Source of the DNA: Marinospirillum alkalitolerans
Lineage (GTDB): Bacteria > Pseudomonadota > Gammaproteobacteria > Pseudomonadales > Halomonadaceae
DNA length: 24,000 bases
Assembly: GCF_045055655.1 (NCBI RefSeq)
Contig: NZ_JBANFI010000003.1
Span: 151,350 to 175,349 of the forward strand
Direction: 5' to 3'
The notes below the pieces were generated by a model that saw nothing but the letters and a program-made list of their open reading frames with translations, was not told where the DNA came from and did no database searches. The position numbers and the translations under genes were made by a program. Within the stretch, counting starts at the first letter, position 1. Every line of letters starts with the position of its first letter. Below, one piece after another: positions 985 through 13,750 of this stretch.

Positions 985-1773
985 ATGAGCAAGTTTTATG
1001 CAGAAGAAGTTACCCATGTGAGTCACTGGACAGACCGCCTGTTCAGCTTCAAAACCACCCGCAGTGATGGACTGAGATTCAAAAACGGCCAGTTTGTGAT
1101 GATTGGCCTTGAAGTCGAAGGCAAGCCGCTGATGCGTGCCTATAGCATTGCCAGCCCCAACTATGAAGAAGAGCTGGAGTTTTTCAGCATCAAGGTGCCA
1201 GATGGCCCCCTGACCTCGCGCCTGCAACATTTGCAGATCGGCGATTCTTTATTTGTCAGTAAAAAACCGACTGGCACACTGGTATTAGACGATTTAAAAC
1301 CCGGCAAGCATCTCTATCTCTTTAGCACCGGCACAGGCTTGGCACCTTTTTTAAGCGTCATCCAGGATCCAGACACCTATGAGCGCTTCGAAAAGGTCAT
1401 CCTGCTGCATGGCGTTCGCCATGAAAAAGATCTGGCCTACCGTGAGTTCATCACTGGCGACCTGCTTGAACACCCCTATCTCAGTGAACAGATTGCTCAG
1501 CAACTCATCTACTACCCCACTGTCACGCGCGAGCCTTTTGTTTATCAAGGTCGAGCACAGCAGGGCAGAATCACCGAGCGAATGGCCAGCGGCGATCTGG
1601 CACGCGATCTGGGTCTACCTGAACTCAATCCAGAGACAGACCGCGCGATGATCTGCGGCAGCCCGATGATGCTGCGCGATATTTCTGCTGCGCTGGATGC
1701 ACGTGGCTTTCAGATTTCACCACGCATGGGTGAGGCCGGTGATTATGTCATCGAGCGGGCTTTTGTTGATTAA
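985..1773 (+). CDS. fpr: Ferredoxin--NADP+ reductase (bacterial Fpr subclass)
   Basis: 262 aa. FAD-binding RAYSIAS and NADP-binding LFSTGTGLAPF motifs; length and end-to-end resemblance to Azotobacter/Pseudomonas Fpr. GAGG RBS about 9 nt upstream of the ATG. Confidence 0.9.
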   Translation: MSKFYAEEVTHVSHWTDRLFSFKTTRSDGLRFKNGQFVMIGLEVEGKPLMRAYSIASPNYEEELEFFSIKVPDGPLTSRLQHLQIGDSLFVSKKPTGTLVLDDLKPGKHLYLFSTGTGLAPFLSVIQDPDTYERFEKVILLHGVRHEKDLAYREFITGDLLEHPYLSEQIAQQLIYYPTVTREPFVYQGRAQQGRITERMASGDLARDLGLPELNPETDRAMICGSPMMLRDISAALDARGFQISPRMGEAGDYVIERAFVD

Positions 1774-1917
1774 TGCGCCAAGGTGATGCAGAGATCCGTC
1801 AGCCAAGCAGGCGCGGCGGATCTCTGGCTCCAGCTGCTTCAGCGTCTTGTAGCAGAACCCCTCTGCATCTTGATAAAATAGAACAATCAAACTAGCTAGA
1901 AACGATGAGGAACCACT

Positions 1918-2283
1918 ATGAAGCATTCCGCTCTCTGCCGTCCCTTGCAAGGCCTTTTTTTGACCTTGCTGCTGGCCCTGCTCTCCAGTCATGTCTTCGC
2001 ACAAGAAGCCCCACTCACTGAGCGCGAAGCCCTGCAAGCCCAAGTTCTGGCGGGTGTCTGCGCCAGCTGCCACGGCACTGAAGGCCGTTTAAGCGGTGTG
2101 ATCCCAGCCATTGCGCAGCGCCCAGCTTCTGTTTTAGAAAGCCAGCTGCTGGCCTTTAAGCGTGGCGAGACACCGCATACCACGGTAATGGAGCGCCTTG
2201 CGCGCGGCTATACCGATGAAGAGCTGGCCCTGTTGGCCCGCTACTTTGCTCAGCCTCAAGCCTATCGTCCTACGCAGCCTTAA
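1918..2283 (+). CDS. Monoheme c-type cytochrome with signal peptide; likely small subunit of flavocytochrome c sulfide dehydrogenase (FccA/SoxE-like)
   Basis: 121 aa with an N-terminal signal peptide (LLLALLSSHVFAQE) and a single CASCH heme-binding motif. Lies 22 nt upstream of the FCSD flavoprotein gene. GAGGA RBS. Confidence 0.75.
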   Translation: MKHSALCRPLQGLFLTLLLALLSSHVFAQEAPLTEREALQAQVLAGVCASCHGTEGRLSGVIPAIAQRPASVLESQLLAFKRGETPHTTVMERLARGYTDEELALLARYFAQPQAYRPTQP

Positions 2284-2305
2284 TCCGACTTTTCAGGAGA
2301 GTGTC

Positions 2306-3604
2306 ATGTCTCAGTTTTCTCGTCGTCAATTCTTAAAAGCCGGTGGTGCCGCAGGTCTACTTCCTCTGGTGGGTGGGTGTGCTGCTTTAGGTGCTCGTTC
2401 AGGCTCAGCCGGTCGGGTCGTGGTCATCGGTGGTGGCTTTGGTGGGGCCACAGCCGCCAAGTATCTGAAGCGCGGTAATCCACAAGTGGAGGTCACCTTG
2501 GTAGAACCCAAGCGTGTCTTCCACACCTGCCCTTTTTCAAATCTGGTGCTCGCTGGCGAGCGTTCGATGGACAGCATTGCGCACAACTATGATGAGCTGA
2601 AGCAGGTTTATGGCGTGCGCGTCATTCATGCAACAGCCACAGATGTCGATCCGGTTGCACAGCGAGTCGTGCTGTCGAATGGTCAGCGCTTAGACTATGA
2701 CCGTCTGCTGCTGTCACCTGGCATCTCGATGCGCTGGAACGAGATCGAAGGCTATGATGAAGCCGCGGCACAACTGGCTCCCCATGCTTGGCAAGCCGGC
2801 CCACAAACCGAGCTTTTGCGTCGTCAACTCGAAGCGATGGAAGATGGCGGCACCTTTGTCCTCAGCGTACCGGCAGACCCCTTCCGCTGCCCGCCCGGAC
2901 CCTATGAGCGTGCGAGCTTAATCGCGCATTACTTTAGCCAGCACAAGCCTCGCTCAAAGGTTCTGATCCTCGATGCCAAGGACAACTTCTCTAAGCAGGG
3001 CCTGTTTATGCAGGGCTGGCGTGAACTCTATGGTGATCGCATCGAATGGGTTGGCCGTGCTCAGGATGGCGAAGTCACCCGTGTGGATGCGACGCGCTTA
3101 GAAGTCGAAACCGAATTCGGCACGCGTCATCGCGCCAGCGTCCTGAATGTGGTGCCGCCACAAAAAGCAGGCTGGATTGCCGAACGCGCAGGCGTCACCG
3201 ATGCTTCTGGCTGGGTACCAGTGAAGGCCAATACCTTTGAATCTCAGCAGGTTGCCAATATCTATGTTGTTGGCGATGCCACTGTTGCCGCTCCAATGCC
3301 CAAATCTGGTTTTGCCGCCAATGCGCAAGGCAAGGTGGCCGCTGCCGCGATTCTGGCCTCACTGGGTGGCTTTGAGCCAGTTGATCCTTACTGGGCCAAC
3401 ACCTGCTATAGCCTGGTGGGTCCTGAGTATGGCATCACCGTTGCTGGTGTTTATCGTGCCGAAAACCAGCGCGTCATCAGTGTTCCCGGCTCAGGTGGTG
3501 TCAGCCCGATGGAGGCCAGTGCGCAGTTCCGCCGCAATGAGGCAGCCTATGCCGTTGGCTGGTATAATGCGATCAGCCAAGATACCTGGGGCACTCAGCT
3601 TTAA
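2306..3604 (+). CDS. fccB: Flavocytochrome c sulfide dehydrogenase flavoprotein subunit (FccB/SoxF-like), Tat-exported
   Basis: Start chosen at ATG 2306: GGAGAG RBS, and the product begins with a twin-arginine signal (MSQFSRRQFLKAGG). FAD dinucleotide fold VVVIGGGFGGATAAKY, a redox-cysteine region (FRCPPGPYERA) and VGDA near the C-terminus. The longer ORF-track start at 2198 would overlap the cytochrome gene. Confidence 0.85.
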   Translation: MSQFSRRQFLKAGGAAGLLPLVGGCAALGARSGSAGRVVVIGGGFGGATAAKYLKRGNPQVEVTLVEPKRVFHTCPFSNLVLAGERSMDSIAHNYDELKQVYGVRVIHATATDVDPVAQRVVLSNGQRLDYDRLLLSPGISMRWNEIEGYDEAAAQLAPHAWQAGPQTELLRRQLEAMEDGGTFVLSVPADPFRCPPGPYERASLIAHYFSQHKPRSKVLILDAKDNFSKQGLFMQGWRELYGDRIEWVGRAQDGEVTRVDATRLEVETEFGTRHRASVLNVVPPQKAGWIAERAGVTDASGWVPVKANTFESQQVANIYVVGDATVAAPMPKSGFAANAQGKVAAAAILASLGGFEPVDPYWANTCYSLVGPEYGITVAGVYRAENQRVISVPGSGGVSPMEASAQFRRNEAAYAVGWYNAISQDTWGTQL

Positions 3605-3640
3605 TGCACCGGCGTATCTCAGCCTGTTGAGCGGATCAAG

Positions 3641-3672
3641 AGCAAGGGATGGGAAACCATCTCTTGCTTTTT
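3641..3672 (+). terminator. Rho-independent terminator after fccB
   Basis: 12-bp stem AGCAAGGGATGG (3641-3652) / CCATCTCTTGCT (3657-3668) with one G-U pair and a GAAA tetraloop, running directly into TTTTT (3668-3672). Confidence 0.75.
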
Positions 3673-3729
3673 GCTCTTCTGATCAGCAGAAGATCCCAGC
3701 CTTCACCTTTGCTGCAAGTGAGACGCCTC

Positions 3730-4824
3730 ATGTCTGATTGGTTTGCTGACCTCATTGATCAACCGCAAGTGCTGCTGCTTTTGGGCATGGCACTGATCGG
3801 CATCGCCTATGGCCTGATTGCACAATGGAGCCGCTTCTGCCTGCTTCGAGGTCTGCTGCATCGCTGGCAACATCAGGATAGCCGTAAGTTACAAGCCTTT
3901 GCCCTCGCTATGGCGACCAGTCTGCTGTTCACTCAGCTGGCACGGGTTCTTTTTGATCTCGATCTTGATCGCAGCGTCTTTTTTCCACGCGATTTCTCAC
4001 CGCTGCTTGTGTTGCTCGGTGGGGTGATCTTTGGCTATGGCATGACGCTGGCCAACGCCTGCGGTGCGCGCAGTGTGGTCCTGCTGGCAAGCGGCAATCT
4101 GCGCTCGGCCGTCACCCTGCTGGCTCTGGCACTGGGCGCGGGCATGACCCTGTCCGGCATCTTAGCCCCCCTGCGCCTGCTACTGGATGGCCTGCCTCTG
4201 CCACGCCTCAGTGGTGTCACACTACCTGAACTGTTCGGCCTTGCATCCAGCTGGGCGATGGTGGTGTTGATCAGCCTCTTACTTTTGGTATTGCTGGCCT
4301 TCTGCTTTTTAAGCTGTCCCCGCTGCCGCACCTCTGGGCGACGCTTAGCCCTAGATGGACGCGATGCCCTCGGCGGCTTGAGTCTTGGCCTGCTGATCGC
4401 GCTCAGCTGGTGGTGGACAGGCTGGGCAGCGCAAGACCCCTTTCAACCTCAGGCCCCCTCAGCGCTGAGCTTTATCGCTCCCATTGCACAAACCCAGCAG
4501 TACCTACTGCTGTCCACAGGCAGCCGCCTAAATCTGGGGGTGGTCTTGGTTCTGGGTGTCTTCTGCGGCGCGCTGGTGCGGGCGCTGCTGGCGAAGGAGT
4601 TTCGCTGGCAAGGCTTTGATTCCACCCGCCAAACCCATTTTTCTTTGCTCGGTGGATTCATGATGGGTGTAGGCGGGGTACTGGCTTTGGGCTGTAGCGT
4701 GGGGCAAGGGCTGAGTGGCTTTTCCACTCTGGCACTGACCAGCTTCTTTGCACTGGCCGGCATTCTACTGGGTACCCGCTGGGCCATGCGCAGACACCTT
4801 TCTTCTTCTCACCCTTCATCATAG
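3730..4824 (+). CDS. YeeE/YedE-family inner-membrane sulfur (thiosulfate) transport protein
   Basis: About 364 aa, polytopic and hydrophobic. Shows the duplicated YeeE/YedE halves, each with conserved cysteine blocks (WSRFCLLRG, LANACGARS, ALGCSVGQG). Start set at ATG 3730 because the ORF-track ATG at 3649 lies inside the upstream terminator hairpin. Confidence 0.8.
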   Translation: MSDWFADLIDQPQVLLLLGMALIGIAYGLIAQWSRFCLLRGLLHRWQHQDSRKLQAFALAMATSLLFTQLARVLFDLDLDRSVFFPRDFSPLLVLLGGVIFGYGMTLANACGARSVVLLASGNLRSAVTLLALALGAGMTLSGILAPLRLLLDGLPLPRLSGVTLPELFGLASSWAMVVLISLLLLVLLAFCFLSCPRCRTSGRRLALDGRDALGGLSLGLLIALSWWWTGWAAQDPFQPQAPSALSFIAPIAQTQQYLLLSTGSRLNLGVVLVLGVFCGALVRALLAKEFRWQGFDSTRQTHFSLLGGFMMGVGGVLALGCSVGQGLSGFSTLALTSFFALAGILLGTRWAMRRHLSSSHPSS

Positions 4825-4838
4825 ATAGGATGTTGATC

Positions 4839-5612
4839 ATGCGATTGAATCTGCAACACTGGAGTCTTCTCAGCCTGCTTCTGCTGCTGATCTCTACCTC
4901 GGCAGCAGCAGCAACGCGCTTTGCCCCCGTCGAAGCCCTGCTCGAAGGCGCTACGCCTCAAACACAAGGGCTGACACTTGAACTCCCCTTAGTCGCAGAT
5001 AATGGGGCCTCAGTTGATCTGAGCCTCCGCTTTGATGCAGCCTTGGCGGAGGGAGATCAATTAGAATTCATCACCCTTTTTGCCACAGAGAATCCACGCG
5101 CAGATATCCTGCGGGCCAGTTTTTTGGATGCACGGGTTGAACCTCAGCTGTCCACACGGATACGCCTGAACCAAAGCCAAACCGTGATTGCCGTCGCGCG
5201 TAGCCAACAAGGCCAATTCTGGATCGCAGAACAGCAGGTACGAGTGACCGTCAGCGGCTGTTTGATCGGCGGCGATGAAACCCAGATCACCAGTATGCAG
5301 CAACCACGCATCGCGCTGCCGCGTCGTCTGCAAGCAGGCCGCAGCATCGATATCCGCACCCTGATCAACCACCCCATGGAAACAGGGCTCACTCAGGTAA
5401 TCGGCGAACCGCTACGCGCACAAAACCTGATTGAATCCTTCACCCTTGAGCTCGATCAGCAGCCAGCCTTGCATCTGGAGTTACACACAGGCGTCGCGGC
5501 CAATCCCTATTTCCGTTTTGGTCTGATCCTGCCAGCCAGTACGCAAGCTAGCTTTATCTGGCAGGATCAACAGGGCGAAATACTGCGTGAAGAACGCCAG
5601 CTGCAACTCTGA
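4839..5612 (+). CDS. Fused SoxY-SoxZ sulfur carrier protein (periplasmic, Sec signal)
   Basis: The N-terminal half matches SoxY blocks (LELPLVADNGASV, ENPRADI, LSTRIRLNQSQTVIAVA, VRVTVSGC). The C-terminal half matches SoxZ blocks (IDIRTLINHPMETG, AANPYFRFG). Signal peptide LLSLLLLLISTSAAAA. ATG 4839 is preferred (AGGA 8 nt upstream); ATG 4830 is an alternative start. Confidence 0.75.
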   Translation: MRLNLQHWSLLSLLLLLISTSAAAATRFAPVEALLEGATPQTQGLTLELPLVADNGASVDLSLRFDAALAEGDQLEFITLFATENPRADILRASFLDARVEPQLSTRIRLNQSQTVIAVARSQQGQFWIAEQQVRVTVSGCLIGGDETQITSMQQPRIALPRRLQAGRSIDIRTLINHPMETGLTQVIGEPLRAQNLIESFTLELDQQPALHLELHTGVAANPYFRFGLILPASTQASFIWQDQQGEILREERQLQL

Positions 5613-8537: not shown

Positions 8538-9667
8538 GCATTCGGATTCAACAAGTCAGTAAATCCTTTGGATCTTTCCAAGCCCTGCATCCACTGAATC
8601 TGGATATCCAGGATGGCGAAATGGTCGGACTGCTCGGTCCTTCTGGCTCAGGCAAAACCACGCTGCTGCGCATGATCGCCGGTTTAGAAAGCTGCGATAC
8701 AGGGAAAATTTTCTTTCAGGATCAAGAAGTCACCCGCCAGCATGTGCGCGACCGCCGCGTTGGCTTTGTGTTTCAGCACTATGCCCTGTTCAAGCATATG
8801 ACCGTGGCCGAGAATATTGCCTTTGGTCTGGATGTGCTGCCCAAATCCCAGCGGCCACCACAGCAGGAGATTCAGCGTCGCGTCAGTGAGCTGTTGGAGC
8901 GCATTCAGCTCCCCCATCTGGCCCAACGCTACCCCACTCAGCTCTCTGGTGGTCAGAAGCAGCGTGTGGCGCTGGCTCGGGCGCTGGCCATGCAGCCACG
9001 CGTGCTGCTGCTCGATGAGCCCTTTGGCGCTTTGGATGCGAAGGTGCGTAAAGAGCTGCGCCGCTGGCTGCGTGAACTCCATGACGAGCTGGGTTTTACC
9101 AGTGTTTTTGTCACCCATGATCAGGAAGAAGCGCTCGAAGTCTCCGATCGTGTAGTGGTGATGAGCCAAGGACGCATCGAGCAGCAGGCTACGCCGCAGG
9201 AACTCTATCATCAGCCAGCCTCACGCTTTGTGTATGACTTTTTAGGTCAGGTCAATATCTTCTCTGGGCAGGTGCAAGGCAAGAAGATGTCTCAGGGCGA
9301 AGCCTGGATCGAACTGCCTCACCCTCTCAAAGCTGAGCAAGGTGAAGTCTTTCTGCGCTCGCATGAGCTGGCCCTCAGCCGCGAGCCAGTGCAAAAGGCC
9401 CATCTGCCCATGCAGATCAATGCCATCAACCTGATCGGTGCCGAAGTCCGCCTTGAACTGCTACCGCAAGGCTGGTCCAGCGCCGAACCCTGGGAAGTGG
9501 CCATCAGCCATCAGGACTTTAATAGCTGGCAGCCACAAAGGGGTGATCGCTGCTTCCTGCGTCCTCTGGCGGGCCAGTTTTTTGCCGCTGCAGAGGCCAG
9601 CGTAACGCCAGCAGGACCTGAGCCGCTGAACTGGTCATCTTCCACAAGAATTTCACTAGCGAGTTAA
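8534..9667 (+). CDS. cysA: Sulfate/thiosulfate import ATP-binding protein CysA
   Basis: Start at ATG 8534 ([12 protein letters not shown]). Walker [13 protein letters not shown] signature LSGGQKQR, Walker B LLLDEPF, H-loop VTHD, and a C-terminal TOBE-like regulatory domain. Confidence 0.9.
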
Positions 9668-9714
9668 CAGGGGATGCGTTAGATTGCCCACTCAGTCTCA
9701 CTTTCTTGAGGATA

Positions 9715-10044
9715 GGCTCAGCGCGTCAACTACCCCAGCCTGAAGGCAGGAGTTTGTGAAAGCAAGCTAGGTTGACCAGGGAAAGCGGCAACCAATCCGC
9801 TACGTTAGCAATAGGTCGTGAAGACCCACCAGCGAATGCTTCCTCAGTTCGCTGCTCTGGAAGAACAGGATCATGCTGGCGCAAGGTAAAACGCCGAAGG
9901 TTCTGTTCGCCACTTCTTTTAAGAAGTGGGAGCCGATTGCTGACTTTCCCGAGGGGAGACAGGGCGTAAGCCCTGCGTCACTAGAACCCGTAAGGGCTGA
10001 ATTTAAAGTTTGAAGGCTTGAAAGTTGAATAGCGGAGAAACAGC
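9715..10044 (+). ncRNA. Candidate IscB omegaRNA (HEARO-type scaffold); the 5' boundary and guide are not resolved
   Basis: 377-nt gap with no credible ORF, directly upstream of and co-oriented with iscB. Densely packed stem-loops: 9784-9801, 9814-9826, 9830-9854, 9863-9908 (enclosing 9878-9895), 9910-9929, 9945-9959, 9961-9974 (GTAA loop), 9987-9996 (GTAA loop). The blocks GACCAGGGAAAGCGGCAACCAATCCGCTAC and TTTCCCGAGGGGAGACAGGGCGTAAGCCCTGCG resemble, from memory, conserved parts of published IscB omegaRNAs. Confidence 0.7.
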
Positions 10045-11400
10045 ATGGCTGTTTTTGTACTGGACAAGCGTAAAACACCACTGATGCCCTGCTCTGAAAA
10101 ACGAGCACGGCAGCTATTAGTGCGTGGGCGTGCAGTGGTACACAAAGTGCGCCCCTTCACGATTCGCTTGAAAGATCGACTGGCCGCTGACTCCACTTTT
10201 CAGCCACTACAGACCAAGATTGATCCAGGCAGCAAAATCACGGGCTTAGCGGTAGTGCGCGAAGATGAACAGCAGCCCGAAAGACAGGTCGTGCTCTGCT
10301 TGTTTGAGCTGATTCATCGTGGATTTCAAATCAAGCAAGCCTTAGAGCAGCGTCGTGCTTTTCGCCGCCGCCGTAGAAATCAGCTCCGCTACCGTGCTGC
10401 GCGTTTTGATAATCGCACCAAGCCCAAAGGTTGGCTGGCTCCAAGCTTACAGCATCGGGTGGATACGACAGTAGATTGGGTGCAGCGGATCATAAAATTA
10501 ACCCCGATCACCAGCATTCAGCAAGAGCTGGTGCGCTTTGATACGCAGAGGCTCGATAATCCCGAGATCAGCGGCGTGGAGTATCAGCAAGGCACTTTGC
10601 TGGGCTATGAAGTGCGCGAGTATCTTTTGGAAAAGTGGGGCCGTGCATGTGCTTACTGCGGCACCCAAGACGTGCCACTCCAGATTGAGCATATTCACCC
10701 GAAAAGCCAAGGTGGATCAAATCGCATCAGTAATTTGACGCTGGCCTGCCACCAGTGCAATCAAGCCAAGAATAATCAGCCGATTGCAGTCTTTTTTGAG
10801 CAGGACAAAGGCTTAAAGCGCCGCTTGAAGAAACAGGGTCTCTCGGCTGAAAAGCAGCTGGGCCGTGTACTGAAGCAATGTAAAAAGCCACTGAAAGATG
10901 CAGCTGCGGTGAATGCGACTCGCTGGGCATTGTTGAATGCACTCAAGCAAATAGATCTACCTGTTTTAACAGGCACTGGCGGCCAAACAAAATTCAATCG
11001 CCAGCGCCTTGGTATACCAAAAACTCACGCGCTGGATGCGGTTTGCGTAGGCCAGATTGAACAGATTGAAGGCTGGCAGCGACCCACCTTAACGATCAAG
11101 GCATCAGGAAGGGGCTGCTATCAGCGCACTCGCTTAGATCGTTTTGGCTTCCCTCGCGGTTACTTGATGCGCCAGAAAAGCGTGCAAGGTTTTCAAACGG
11201 GTGATTTGGTGAAGGCCGAGGTACCATCAGGCAAGAAGGCGGGTATTCACACGGGTCGTGTCGCTATCAGAAAAACAGGCAGTTTTAATATCCAGCTTCC
11301 TGATCAGATTATTCAGGGCATCAGCTGGAAATATTGCCGAATGCTTCAACGTGGTGATGGCTATGGCTACCACCAAACTTCAACAGTTCTAAGAACATAA
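10045..11400 (+). CDS. iscB: IscB: RNA-guided DNA endonuclease of the IS200/IS605 (ISC) family, the Cas9-ancestor type (PLMP + split RuvC + bridge helix + HNH + C-terminal TAM-interaction-like domain)
   Basis: 451 aa. PLMP motif at residues 12-15. RuvC-I IDPGSKITGLAVV (D60). Arg-rich bridge helix QRRAFRRRRRNQLRYRAARFDNR...GWLAPSL. RuvC-II QQELVRFD (E161). HNH with zinc knuckles CAYCG...IEHIHP...SNL...CHQCN (C202/C205, H216, N230, C235/C238). RuvC-III THALDA (H328, D331). C-terminal GFQTGDLV...GRVAIRKTGSFNI barrel. GGAG RBS 7 nt upstream. Confidence 0.9.
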   Translation: MAVFVLDKRKTPLMPCSEKRARQLLVRGRAVVHKVRPFTIRLKDRLAADSTFQPLQTKIDPGSKITGLAVVREDEQQPERQVVLCLFELIHRGFQIKQALEQRRAFRRRRRNQLRYRAARFDNRTKPKGWLAPSLQHRVDTTVDWVQRIIKLTPITSIQQELVRFDTQRLDNPEISGVEYQQGTLLGYEVREYLLEKWGRACAYCGTQDVPLQIEHIHPKSQGGSNRISNLTLACHQCNQAKNNQPIAVFFEQDKGLKRRLKKQGLSAEKQLGRVLKQCKKPLKDAAAVNATRWALLNALKQIDLPVLTGTGGQTKFNRQRLGIPKTHALDAVCVGQIEQIEGWQRPTLTIKASGRGCYQRTRLDRFGFPRGYLMRQKSVQGFQTGDLVKAEVPSGKKAGIHTGRVAIRKTGSFNIQLPDQIIQGISWKYCRMLQRGDGYGYHQTSTVLRT

Positions 11401-11419
11401 AGGAGAAGCGAGAACAGGT

Positions 11420-11453
11420 AAAACGAGACCTCTATCAAGGTTACGTTTTCCAC
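11420..11453 (+). terminator. Hairpin + T-run downstream of iscB (terminator and/or subterminal transposon-end hairpin)
   Basis: Imperfect 12-bp stem AAAACGAGACCT (11420-11431) / AGGTTACGTTTT (11438-11449), 10 of 12 paired, with loop CTATCA. The 3' arm ends in TTTT. Located 20 nt after the iscB stop. Confidence 0.4.
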
Positions 11454-11485
11454 TCTGAGCTAAAGCACGGAGTTTCTCGCGTAAA

Positions 11486-13750
11486 ATGATGAAATTTCGT
11501 TTCCCCGTCATCGTGGTCGATGAAGATTTTCGTTCAGAAAATATTTCTGGTTCCGGTATTCGTGATCTCGCCGAAGCCATAGGTAAAGAAGGCATGGAGG
11601 TCGTGGGCTACACCAGCTATGGTGATCTCACGGCCTTTGCGCAGCAGGCCAGCCGCGCGTCCTGTTTTATTGTCTCCATTGATGACGAGGAATTTTCCGA
11701 TGAGGAAGAGGGTGTCGATCGTGCTTTAGAGCAGATTGGCAGCTTTATTCGTGAAGTGCGCAAGCGCAATCATGATATCCCTATCTTTCTGTACGGCGAA
11801 ACGCGCACCTCGCGCCATATTCCGAATGCCATCCTGCGTGAACTGCATGGTTTTATCCATATGTTTGAGGATACGCCTGAGTTTGTGGCACGGCATATTA
11901 TTCGTGAAGCCAAAAAATACCTTGATGCGCTGGCACCGCCCTTTTTTACTGCGCTGATGGACTATGCCAGCGACTCCTCCTACTCCTGGCACTGCCCAGG
12001 ACATTCAGGGGGGGTGGCCTTTCTAAAAAGCCCCGTCGGGCAGATGTTCCACCAGTTCTTTGGTGAGAATATGCTGCGTGCTGATGTCTGTAACGCCGTC
12101 GATGAACTGGGCCAGCTGCTTGATCACACCGGCCCAGTTGCCGACAGTGAGCATAATGCGGCGCGGATTTTTGGTTGTGATCACCTGTTCTTTGTCACCA
12201 ATGGCACCTCGACTTCAAACAAGGTGGTCTGGCACTCCACTGTCGCCCCTGGAGACGTGGTGGTGGTTGATCGCAACTGCCATAAATCGATTCTGCACTC
12301 CATCATCATGACGGGGGCGATTCCTGTCTTTTTGATGCCCACACGCAACCACTACGGCATTATTGGCCCCATCCCGAAGAGTGAATTTGATCCGGCCACG
12401 ATACGTGCCAAGATCGAAGCCAATCCCTTCGCACGCCATGCCGTCAATAAGGACAAGCCACGGATTCTGACCATCACCCAATCTACCTATGATGGTATTC
12501 TCTACAATGTGGAAGAGATCAAAGCCCAGCTGGGTCAGACCATCGATACGCTGCATTTTGATGAAGCCTGGCTGCCTCACGCTGCTTTTCATCCCTTCTA
12601 CAAGGATATGCATGCCATCGGTGCCGATCGTCCGCGTTCGGAAGAAACACTGGTCTTTGCGACCCAATCGACCCACAAGCTGCTGGCGGGTCTTTCTCAA
12701 GCGTCACAAATTCTGGTCCAAGATAGCCAAACCCGTCAGCTGGATCGCCATCGCTTCAATGAATCCTATCTGATGCACTCCTCCACCAGCCCCCAGTACG
12801 CGATTATTGCTTCCTGCGATGTGGCAGCAGCGATGATGGAAGAACCCGGTGGGCAAGCCCTGGTCGAAGAATCCATTCATGAAGCCATCGACTTCCGCCG
12901 CGCGATGCGCAAGGTCGATGCTGAATTCGGTGATGATGACTGGTGGTTTACTGTCTGGGGTCCAGAAGAACTCGCGGAAGAAGGCATAGGTGATCGAGAT
13001 GCCTGGGTGATTCATTCCGGAGATACCTGGCATGGTTTTGGGGACATCAAAACCGGCTTTAATATGCTCGATCCCATTAAAGCCACCATCATCACCCCCG
13101 GATTGGATGTCGATGGTAACTTTGATGCTCAGGGTATTCCTGCGGCGATTGTCAGCAAGTATCTGGCAGAGCACGGCATTATCATCGAAAAAACCGGCCT
13201 CTACTCCTTCTTCATCATGTTTACCATTGGCATTACCAAAGGCCGCTGGAATTCAATGGTGACTGAGCTCCAGCAGTTCAAAGATGACTATGATCGCAAC
13301 CAGCCGATCTGGCGGGTGATGCCTGAATTTGCCGCGCGCCATCCTCAGTATGAGAAAACGGGGCTGCGCGATTTATGCCATGCGATCCATCAGGTGTACA
13401 AGGAGTACAACCTGGCCCGCATCACCACTGATATGTATCTGTCCAATATCGAGCCTGCGATGCTGCCTGCCGAAGCCTGGGCGAAGATGGCGCACCGTCA
13501 GGTTGAGCGTTGCCCAATCGATGCCCTTGAAGGCCGTGTTACGGCGATGCTGGTCACCCCCTACCCGCCCGGCATTCCACTGCTGATTCCCGGCGAGAAG
13601 TTTAATGCCACCATCGTGCGCTATCTGAAGTTTGTACGTGATTTCAACCAGCGCTTTCCTGGCTTTGAAACCGATGTACATGGTCTGGTGCATGAAGAAG
13701 TCAACGGCGTGGATGGCTACTATGTTGATGTGGTGCAAGAAGCGCCCTGA
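11486..13750 (+). CDS. Orn/Lys/Arg decarboxylase family, PLP-dependent, large wing-domain type (LdcA-like lysine decarboxylase)
   Basis: 754 aa. N-terminal response-regulator-like wing (FPVIVVDEDF), SYSWHCPGHSGGVAF, PLP-lysine motif FATQSTHKLLAG, and C-terminal PYPPGIPLLIPGE. From memory, end-to-end resemblance to Pseudomonas LdcA. Substrate (Lys versus Arg) is not resolvable by eye. Confidence 0.85.
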   Translation: MMKFRFPVIVVDEDFRSENISGSGIRDLAEAIGKEGMEVVGYTSYGDLTAFAQQASRASCFIVSIDDEEFSDEEEGVDRALEQIGSFIREVRKRNHDIPIFLYGETRTSRHIPNAILRELHGFIHMFEDTPEFVARHIIREAKKYLDALAPPFFTALMDYASDSSYSWHCPGHSGGVAFLKSPVGQMFHQFFGENMLRADVCNAVDELGQLLDHTGPVADSEHNAARIFGCDHLFFVTNGTSTSNKVVWHSTVAPGDVVVVDRNCHKSILHSIIMTGAIPVFLMPTRNHYGIIGPIPKSEFDPATIRAKIEANPFARHAVNKDKPRILTITQSTYDGILYNVEEIKAQLGQTIDTLHFDEAWLPHAAFHPFYKDMHAIGADRPRSEETLVFATQSTHKLLAGLSQASQILVQDSQTRQLDRHRFNESYLMHSSTSPQYAIIASCDVAAAMMEEPGGQALVEESIHEAIDFRRAMRKVDAEFGDDDWWFTVWGPEELAEEGIGDRDAWVIHSGDTWHGFGDIKTGFNMLDPIKATIITPGLDVDGNFDAQGIPAAIVSKYLAEHGIIIEKTGLYSFFIMFTIGITKGRWNSMVTELQQFKDDYDRNQPIWRVMPEFAARHPQYEKTGLRDLCHAIHQVYKEYNLARITTDMYLSNIEPAMLPAEAWAKMAHRQVERCPIDALEGRVTAMLVTPYPPGIPLLIPGEKFNATIVRYLKFVRDFNQRFPGFETDVHGLVHEEVNGVDGYYVDVVQEAP

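Follow-up and report, generated by a model that had tools for sequence, protein, structure and literature searches.

The DNA analyzed here, hereafter called the window, is a stretch of 24,000 nucleotides (nt) from Marinospirillum alkalitolerans (contig NZ_JBANFI010000003.1, positions 151,350 to 175,349). Positions 9725 to 11488 of the window very probably constitute a 1,764-bp nonautonomous element of the IS200/IS605 type (an "ISC"/HEARO element) that carries an intact iscB together with the gene for its omegaRNA; all coordinates below are window positions on the + strand. The identification of the encoded protein as IscB, which was the central claim of an initial annotation made from the sequence, is correct but already known, because the exact protein is annotated as IscB and belongs to a family of thousands. 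An identical protein is present in NCBI and UniRef (WP_405338314.1/MFK7160523.1, "RNA-guided endonuclease IscB," Marinospirillum sp. MEB164/M. alkalitolerans), and at least 8,000 homologs were recovered from the protein collection at an E value of ≤1e-10, many of them already named IscB. IscB is a small, transposon-encoded protein from which Cas9 descends, and publications already cover the family as well as its omegaRNA, structures, and role in homing. What is added here is the full parts list for this copy, with the exact ends of the element, its guide, its target-adjacent motif (TAM), and the proof provided by empty sites; with this list, the copy can be tested directly as a compact nuclease that has ATGA(A) as its TAM.

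An IscB protein with an intact active site

The iscB coding sequence (10045 to 11400) comprises 451 codons with an ATG start and a TAA stop, and its product is the 451-amino-acid (aa) sequence of WP_405338314.1. A Shine-Dalgarno sequence, GGAG, can be read from the sequence at 10034 to 10037, 7 nt before the ATG, and GGAG or AGGAG occurs at the aligned position in most relatives in an alignment of 40 elements. We assign the protein to IscB because profile searches, the mapping of catalytic residues, a fold search, and the cognate omegaRNA upstream all agree. In profile searches, the product matched the NCBIfam equivalog model NF040563 (guided_IscB, "RNA-guided endonuclease IscB") over aa 3 to 336 with 449.7 bits versus a cutoff of 175, the Pfam RRXRR model over aa 3 to 183 (E = 1.6e-70; 237 bits versus a cutoff of 25), and the Pfam HNH model over aa 202 to 245 (E = 1.4e-12). 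A phmmer search of the PDB sequences recovered IscB chains as the best seven hits, with the top nine all being IscB or IsrB (e.g., TbaIscB, E = 4e-43; OgeuIscB, E = 1e-25). An AlphaFold2 model generated from an alignment of 50 homologs has the expected secondary structure and a beta-rich C-terminal region of 110 residues, and the 10 best Foldseek matches of this model in the PDB were all IscB or IsrB complexes (best E = 4.5e-20), with Cas9d and Cas9 coming next. Two neighboring families were considered and ruled out. An IsrB identity is ruled out by the HNH domain that the protein contains. A Cas9 identity is ruled out by the absence of a REC lobe (the product is only 451 aa long, with a gap of about 40 residues between the bridge helix and RuvC-II), by the lack of a CRISPR array or tandem repeats in the window, and by scores far under the cutoffs of the Cas9 and Cas9d models (36.6 versus 100 and 44.3 versus 375, respectively).

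Along the protein, the domains follow in the order PLMP, RuvC-I, Arg-rich bridge helix, RuvC-II, HNH, RuvC-III, and a beta-rich C-terminal WED/TI-like region. The initial annotation had described this same full IscB order in an open reading frame (ORF) at 10045 to 11400, and each of its coordinates and residue positions proved correct. The PLMP motif (P12-L13-M14-P15, 10078 to 10089) aligns to that of OgeuIscB and is at least 90% conserved among the 50 homologs (65 to 95% identity). In a residue-by-residue alignment, RuvC-I D60 (10222 to 10224), RuvC-II E161 (10525 to 10527), HNH H216 (10690 to 10692), and RuvC-III H328 and D331 (11026 to 11037) pair with OgeuIscB D61, E193, H247, H340, and D343, which are the RuvC and HNH catalytic residues of that protein (Kato et al., PMC9640706). 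These five residues, together with N230 (10732 to 10734) and N239 of the HNH domain and the four zinc-knuckle cysteines of its two CxxC pairs (C202/C205 and C235/C238), are invariant in the 50 homologs. Approximately 130 positions are invariant across this set, as listed from the window sequence, and the family residue is present at each. The window protein is an IscB with every active-site residue intact, as the initial annotation had held.

The Arg-rich segment ALEQRRAFRRRRRNQLRYRAARF (about aa 98 to 121) includes the bridge-helix core RRAFRRRRRNQLRYR (aa 103 to 117), which falls inside the RRXRR Pfam match and between RuvC-I and RuvC-II; a helix is predicted at aa 93 to 111 in the AlphaFold model. 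Beyond aa 342, neither the profile search nor the OgeuIscB alignment gave a sequence-level match. The predicted model nevertheless places eight beta strands at aa 340 to 445, with a predicted local distance difference test (pLDDT) score of mostly 75 to 87 at aa 380 to 440, in agreement with the small beta-rich C-terminal domain proposed earlier. Many positions of this region are invariant, and the full-length Foldseek alignments to IscB extend over about 530 columns.

The omegaRNA scaffold

The region upstream of iscB encodes the omegaRNA scaffold (HEARO; 9725 to 9998), which starts at the right end (RE) of the transposon and is supported by both Rfam and covariation. The Rfam HEARO model (RF02033) matched 9725 to 9960 of the + strand with 109 bits versus a gathering score of 83 (E = 5.6e-22), and the match spans the whole model (positions 1 to 211 of 211). 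We aligned 40 related elements over the stretch that begins at the conserved 5' edge and ends at the start codon of iscB and folded the alignment with RNAalifold, which predicted 61 pairs, 43 of them with compensatory double changes. Two further conserved hairpins were found 3' of the Rfam model (9960 to 9975 and 9986 to 9998). As both covary and extend beyond RF02033, we take the scaffold to run from 9725 to about 9998, so that the conserved RNA of this clade is about 38 nt longer than the Rfam motif. That RF02033 does not include downstream elements had been remarked upon by Meers et al. (bioRxiv 10.1101/2023.03.14.532601). A HEARO match was recovered at the same position in 20/20 relatives scanned, with scores of 90 to 125 bits, among which the window RNA is in the middle of the range. 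The window RNA is a HEARO/omegaRNA, strongly supported by covariation.

Ends of the element, insertion site, guide, and TAM

To delimit the element, we used a set of related loci obtained by scanning the genome collection (249 loci, of which 80 were kept, with 59 to 81% amino acid identity). These come mainly from Halomonadaceae, Chromatiaceae, and Burkholderiales, often with several copies per genome. In six genomes, the copies within the same genome share a unit of 1.7 to 1.77 kb and nothing past it. At the 5' side, the edge of homology is sharp at GTCAAC(T)ACC, corresponding to 9725, in about 75 related loci, and the sequence upstream is unrelated between copies. The RE accordingly begins with the terminal motif GTCAA (9725 to 9729), followed by the RE/P1 hairpin (9733 to 9752). 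The 3' terminus of the unit is ...CTCGCGCAAGACTG, and in most copies ATGA comes next; the window has TTTCTCGCGTAAAATG|ATGAA at this point. The left end (LE, in TnpA orientation) thus delimited by the within-genome copies and by the comparison with empty sites occupies 11401 to 11488, with a predicted subterminal hairpin at 11452 to 11473 and the terminal sequence TTTCTCGCGTAAAATG.

The empty sites were provided by the orthologs of the downstream Orn/Lys/Arg decarboxylase gene in Marinospirillum celere and on three other Marinospirillum contigs (about 91% amino acid identity). In these, the 5' untranslated region (UTR) of the gene directly abuts the start codon (...GC|ATGAAATTTCG), whereas in the window the element is inserted between the 5' UTR and the ATG: 9670 to 9724 shows homology to the 5' UTR that precedes the decarboxylase gene in the element-free Marinospirillum, and the sequence from 11489 onward is homologous to the gene. 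Because this junction is precise, the ends at 9725 and 11488 are exact, and the target site was not duplicated. A 93%-identical element (locus L081; IscB 95% identical) is found on a metagenome contig at a site unrelated to this one, where it precedes a trmB-like gene and again adjoins ATGA. The closest genome match, in Nitrincola schmidtii (81% amino acid identity), was considered as a possible orthologous insertion and rejected, as its 3' flank differs and homology stops at the terminus of the element.

The guide would be encoded by the host flank just outside the RE, AGGATAGGCTCAGCGC (9709 to 9724), which belongs to the decarboxylase 5' UTR; its length of 16 nt is nominal and was taken from published IscB systems. 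The TAM, ATGAA (11489 to 11493), is the reverse complement of TTCAT, the form in which it appears on the top strand of the transposon, and is itself host sequence, its ATG being the codon at which the decarboxylase natively starts. The RE terminus GTCAA is the reverse complement of TTGAC, which is two positions off TTCAT. No further element ends or guide matches were found in the window besides the element itself. As the 1,764 bp hold only the omegaRNA and iscB and no TnpA, the element is nonautonomous.

In the relatives, the RE and LE hairpins are alike, both having the form CCCCGSCC-TGAA-GGSCGGRG, as expected of subterminal hairpins bound by TnpA. The LE hairpin of the window has diverged from this clade consensus (CTCTGAGC-TAAA-GCACGGAG), and its RE hairpin has an A.A mismatch.

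Comparison with known systems

The arrangement closely follows the one described for IscB elements by Meers et al. (bioRxiv 10.1101/2023.03.14.532601), in which the RE marks the boundary of the HEARO region upstream of iscB, the LE directly adjoins the TAM, and the omegaRNA depends for its synthesis on transcription coming from outside the element. In that study, the wild-type GstIscB TAM was TTCAT, with the RE motif two positions off the TAM, and only about 1.5% of iscB genes had tnpA nearby, with about 98% of iscB elements being nonautonomous. The window fits this geometry in having the RE at 9725, the LE at 11401 to 11488, an ATGAA TAM, and a GTCAA RE terminus. It shares with the GstIscB element (ISGst IS605-like, Geobacillus stearothermophilus) the nonautonomous organization, the RE-bounded HEARO/omegaRNA upstream of iscB, the guide in the host flank, the TAM abutting the LE, the TTCAT pentamer, and the RE motif two positions off the TAM. 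The two differ in host (Gammaproteobacteria for the window versus Firmicutes for GstIscB) and in that both activity and partnership with TnpA have been demonstrated for GstIscB, whereas the window element is known from its sequence.

OgeuIscB (PDB codes 7XHT, 7UTN, 8CSZ, and 8CTL) resembles the window protein in its domain order, catalytic residues, and PLMP motif. In both systems, the omegaRNA is long and structured and has its guide at the 5' end, and the 3' TAM, which a beta-barrel TI domain reads in OgeuIscB, would be read by the putative WED/TI-like region of the window protein. The two are only about 20% identical in the structural alignment and differ in length (496 versus 451 aa), and the TAM reported for OgeuIscB is NWRRNA. 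Furthermore, the OgeuIscB HNH domain lacks the second CxxC knuckle in the aligned stretch, whereas the window protein has both. The best sequence match in the PDB, TbaIscB (PDB code 9K30; E value given above), was aligned over the PLMP, RuvC, bridge-helix, HNH, and RuvC-III regions. Its chain has 1,068 residues, with the IscB-like part starting from residue 496, and the window protein has no such N-terminal extension. IsrB and Cas9 (types II-C and II-D) share with the window protein a RuvC fold split by the bridge helix, and Cas9 also shares the inserted HNH domain; the matches of the Cas9d and Cas9 models to the window protein are weak and partial. The TAM of AwaIscB is ATGA, and relatives of the window protein are found in Allochromatium. 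One contig of Allochromatium humboldtianum (contig 18, L038) has two complete IscB/HEARO elements (at 244 to 482 and 2713 to 2952 of that locus), about 2.5 kb apart and in the same orientation.

Selection, proposed mechanism, and alternative explanations

The ratio of nonsynonymous to synonymous substitution rates (dN/dS) of the window iscB is 0.12 in comparison with the 95%-identical copy at the other locus (L081) and 0.035 in comparison with the Nitrincola copy (L001). These low values point to purifying selection and, together with the intact active site, the full-length ORF, and an omegaRNA score typical of the clade, indirectly support a functional gene.

On the basis of the published OMEGA mechanism (Altae-Tran 2021; Meers 2023), the element would operate as follows. 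Transcription entering from the host side would produce an omegaRNA with a 5' end of about 16 nt derived from the host flank (AGGATAGGCTCAGCGC), which would be bound by IscB. A TnpA acting in trans and encoded elsewhere would excise the element, leaving a resealed donor joint, AGGATAGGCTCAGCGC|ATGAA, in which the guide match is followed by the TAM. The omegaRNA-IscB complex would recognize this joint, with HNH cutting the target strand and RuvC cutting the nontarget strand, and recombination after cutting would restore the element. The occupied locus would be protected, since there the guide match is followed by GTCAA rather than ATGAA, from which it differs at two positions.

Several observations weigh against an element that is intact and working in this manner. 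Two stems of the window omegaRNA carry private mismatches: A.A in the RE/P1 hairpin and, in the last hairpin, A.C at its base. A promoter and terminator scan of 9500 to 11600 gave counts equal to the expectation from shuffled sequence, with no promoter-like site above chance upstream of the omegaRNA. The window has a single copy of the element, and no transposase-family Pfam match, including TnpA (Y1 HUH transposase, PF01797), was recovered among its ORFs of at least 120 aa. The AlphaFold2 model is of moderate quality (pLDDT 71; predicted template modeling score 0.57). Finally, RNA-guided cleavage by this IscB is something that we infer from its sequence, and poor performance in heterologous cells has been reported for some natural IscBs (PMC12660989), so that intact motifs are no guarantee of useful activity. 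The initial annotation's statement that the protein is likely active rather than a relic has gained indirect support from the intact residues, the dN/dS of 0.12, and the mid-range omegaRNA, with cleavage itself standing at the level of a prediction.

These observations bear on two other explanations of the locus. By analogy with the TnpB-derived TldR regulators, the element might have been immobilized in a genome with no TnpA and its nuclease or RNA co-opted for a host role such as regulation of the decarboxylase. The lack of TnpA in the window would fit this explanation, as would the position of the element between the 5' UTR and the ATG, where it necessarily affects decarboxylase expression, and the occurrence of the exact protein in one cluster member with one contig only. 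However, TldR-type proteins lose their nuclease residues, whereas here all are intact; the 93%-identical element of L081 occupies an unrelated locus in another sample; the site is empty in related Marinospirillum, and the insertion is therefore recent and not an ancient fixed feature; and a nearby tnpA is in any case rare among iscB genes in general (about 1.5%; Meers et al.). We therefore consider domestication improbable. Slightly more improbable still is that the locus is a decaying relic, with an open reading frame but a system disabled by a defective omegaRNA, a lack of transcription, or substitutions outside the catalytic motifs. The two stem mismatches unique to the window omegaRNA, the absence of a promoter signal, and the divergence of the LE hairpin from the clade consensus could be read in this way, but such decay is difficult to reconcile with a full-length ORF, a dN/dS of 0.12 relative to the closest copy, a HEARO score of 109 bits in the middle of the clade range, and the retention of the family residue at all of the approximately 130 invariant positions.

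A third explanation, that the protein is an ordinary stand-alone HNH or McrA-like restriction endonuclease, is suggested by database names ("5-methylcytosine-specific restriction endonuclease McrA" for some homologs in JGI and "HNH endonuclease" for some in NCBI) and by the HNH Pfam domains that are indeed present. It is excluded by the Pfam and NCBIfam profiles, the OgeuIscB alignment, and Foldseek: HNH accounts for only aa 202 to 245 of 451 and is flanked by the motifs of RuvC-I, RuvC-II, and RuvC-III and by the RRXRR/bridge helix; the fold search returns IscB, IsrB, and Cas9 and not McrA; and a HEARO RNA is located upstream. The profile searches and structural comparison that had been proposed as checks in the initial annotation thus both point to IscB. 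A nonautonomous element with an intact iscB and its omegaRNA remains, in our view, by far the best account of the locus.

Insertion at start codons across the clade

The position of the TAM at a start codon is not peculiar to the window. The LE end could be identified in 68 related elements, and in 47 of them (about 70%) the ATG adjacent to the LE opens an ORF of at least 100 codons, versus 21% of control ATGA sites taken from the same flanks (binomial P = 3e-17). All 10 of the downstream ORFs that were tested are real genes, with Pfam models that start no more than a few residues in; among them are pth, argS, fabH, ruvA, and a nadD-like gene. The 5' flanks, which correspond to the guides, often contain the Shine-Dalgarno sequence of the host gene. 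In 20 of these 68, the ORF of iscB continues across the LE and closes in a TGATG overlap, in which the TGA stop shares its A with the host ATG. All of these (L022, L023, L025, L029, L030, L032, L033, L035, L039 to L041, L044, L045, L047, L048, L053, L059, L061, L071, and L073) belong to a single, mainly betaproteobacterial subclade, and the overlap suggests that translation of the host gene may be coupled to that of iscB. The window element does not have this overlap, its iscB stop being 88 nt upstream of the host ATG.

The simplest reading of the start-codon bias is one of retention: among ATGA sites that are transcribed and at the same time nondisruptive, start codons with a following A are the most frequent. 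On this reading, translational coupling has additionally evolved in some subclades. We tentatively raise a stronger possibility, which we hold to be somewhat doubtful at present, namely, that this proteobacterial IscB/HEARO clade is specialized for one exact position, with the Shine-Dalgarno sequence of a host gene on one side and its start codon on the other. The ATGA TAM would then be the start codon plus one base, and the guide would be the host 5' UTR. The host promoter would drive the omegaRNA and iscB, and the host gene, often an essential one, would be expressed by read-through, with one subclade coupling it via TGATG and the window copy being one instance of the habit. The original description of HEARO by Weinberg and colleagues in 2009 is said to have noted its insertion 5' of ATGA or GTGA. 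Such "start-codon parking" was not found described in the literature searched, in which the preprint of Meers et al. reports only an orientation bias with respect to the upstream gene. The habit may therefore prove to be new and, if so, would help explain both how a guide that must start outside the element is transcribed and how IscB elements avoid harming their hosts.

The decarboxylase gene and its neighborhood

The Orn/Lys/Arg decarboxylase gene (11489 to 13750) is a host gene outside the element, and its product shares 91% identity with the 753-aa arginine decarboxylase of M. celere, which starts with MKFRFP. The terminus of the LE (...AAAATG) adds an in-frame ATG at 11486, just before the native ATG at 11489, so that the annotated decarboxylase would start with MMKF rather than MKF. 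The native Shine-Dalgarno sequence of the gene (GAGGA, 9706 to 9710) is now 1.76 kb away, and the nearest similar sequence is a GGAG at 11469 to 11472, 13 to 16 nt from the start codons at 11486 and 11489.

Upstream of the element, cysA has the same orientation as the element. The genes upstream of the decarboxylase encode a cysPTWA-type sulfate ABC transporter in the window versus an OmpR-type response regulator in related Marinospirillum, and the downstream neighbor is DeaD in the window versus cysN/cysD-like genes in those genomes. We compared 9660 to 9724 of the window with 2415 to 2500 of the related loci L082 to L085. The element was rejected as the cause of the upstream break in synteny, since homology to the decarboxylase 5' UTR persists for about 50 nt upstream of the insertion; owing to this persistence, the break must be further upstream, about 50 nt before the insertion, and it falls inside the apparent promoter region of the decarboxylase. 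Further upstream of the sulfate transporter genes, the window has a set of sulfur-oxidation genes (985 to 5612) coding for a flavocytochrome c sulfide dehydrogenase (FCSD), a Sulf_transp permease, and a fused SoxY-SoxZ protein.

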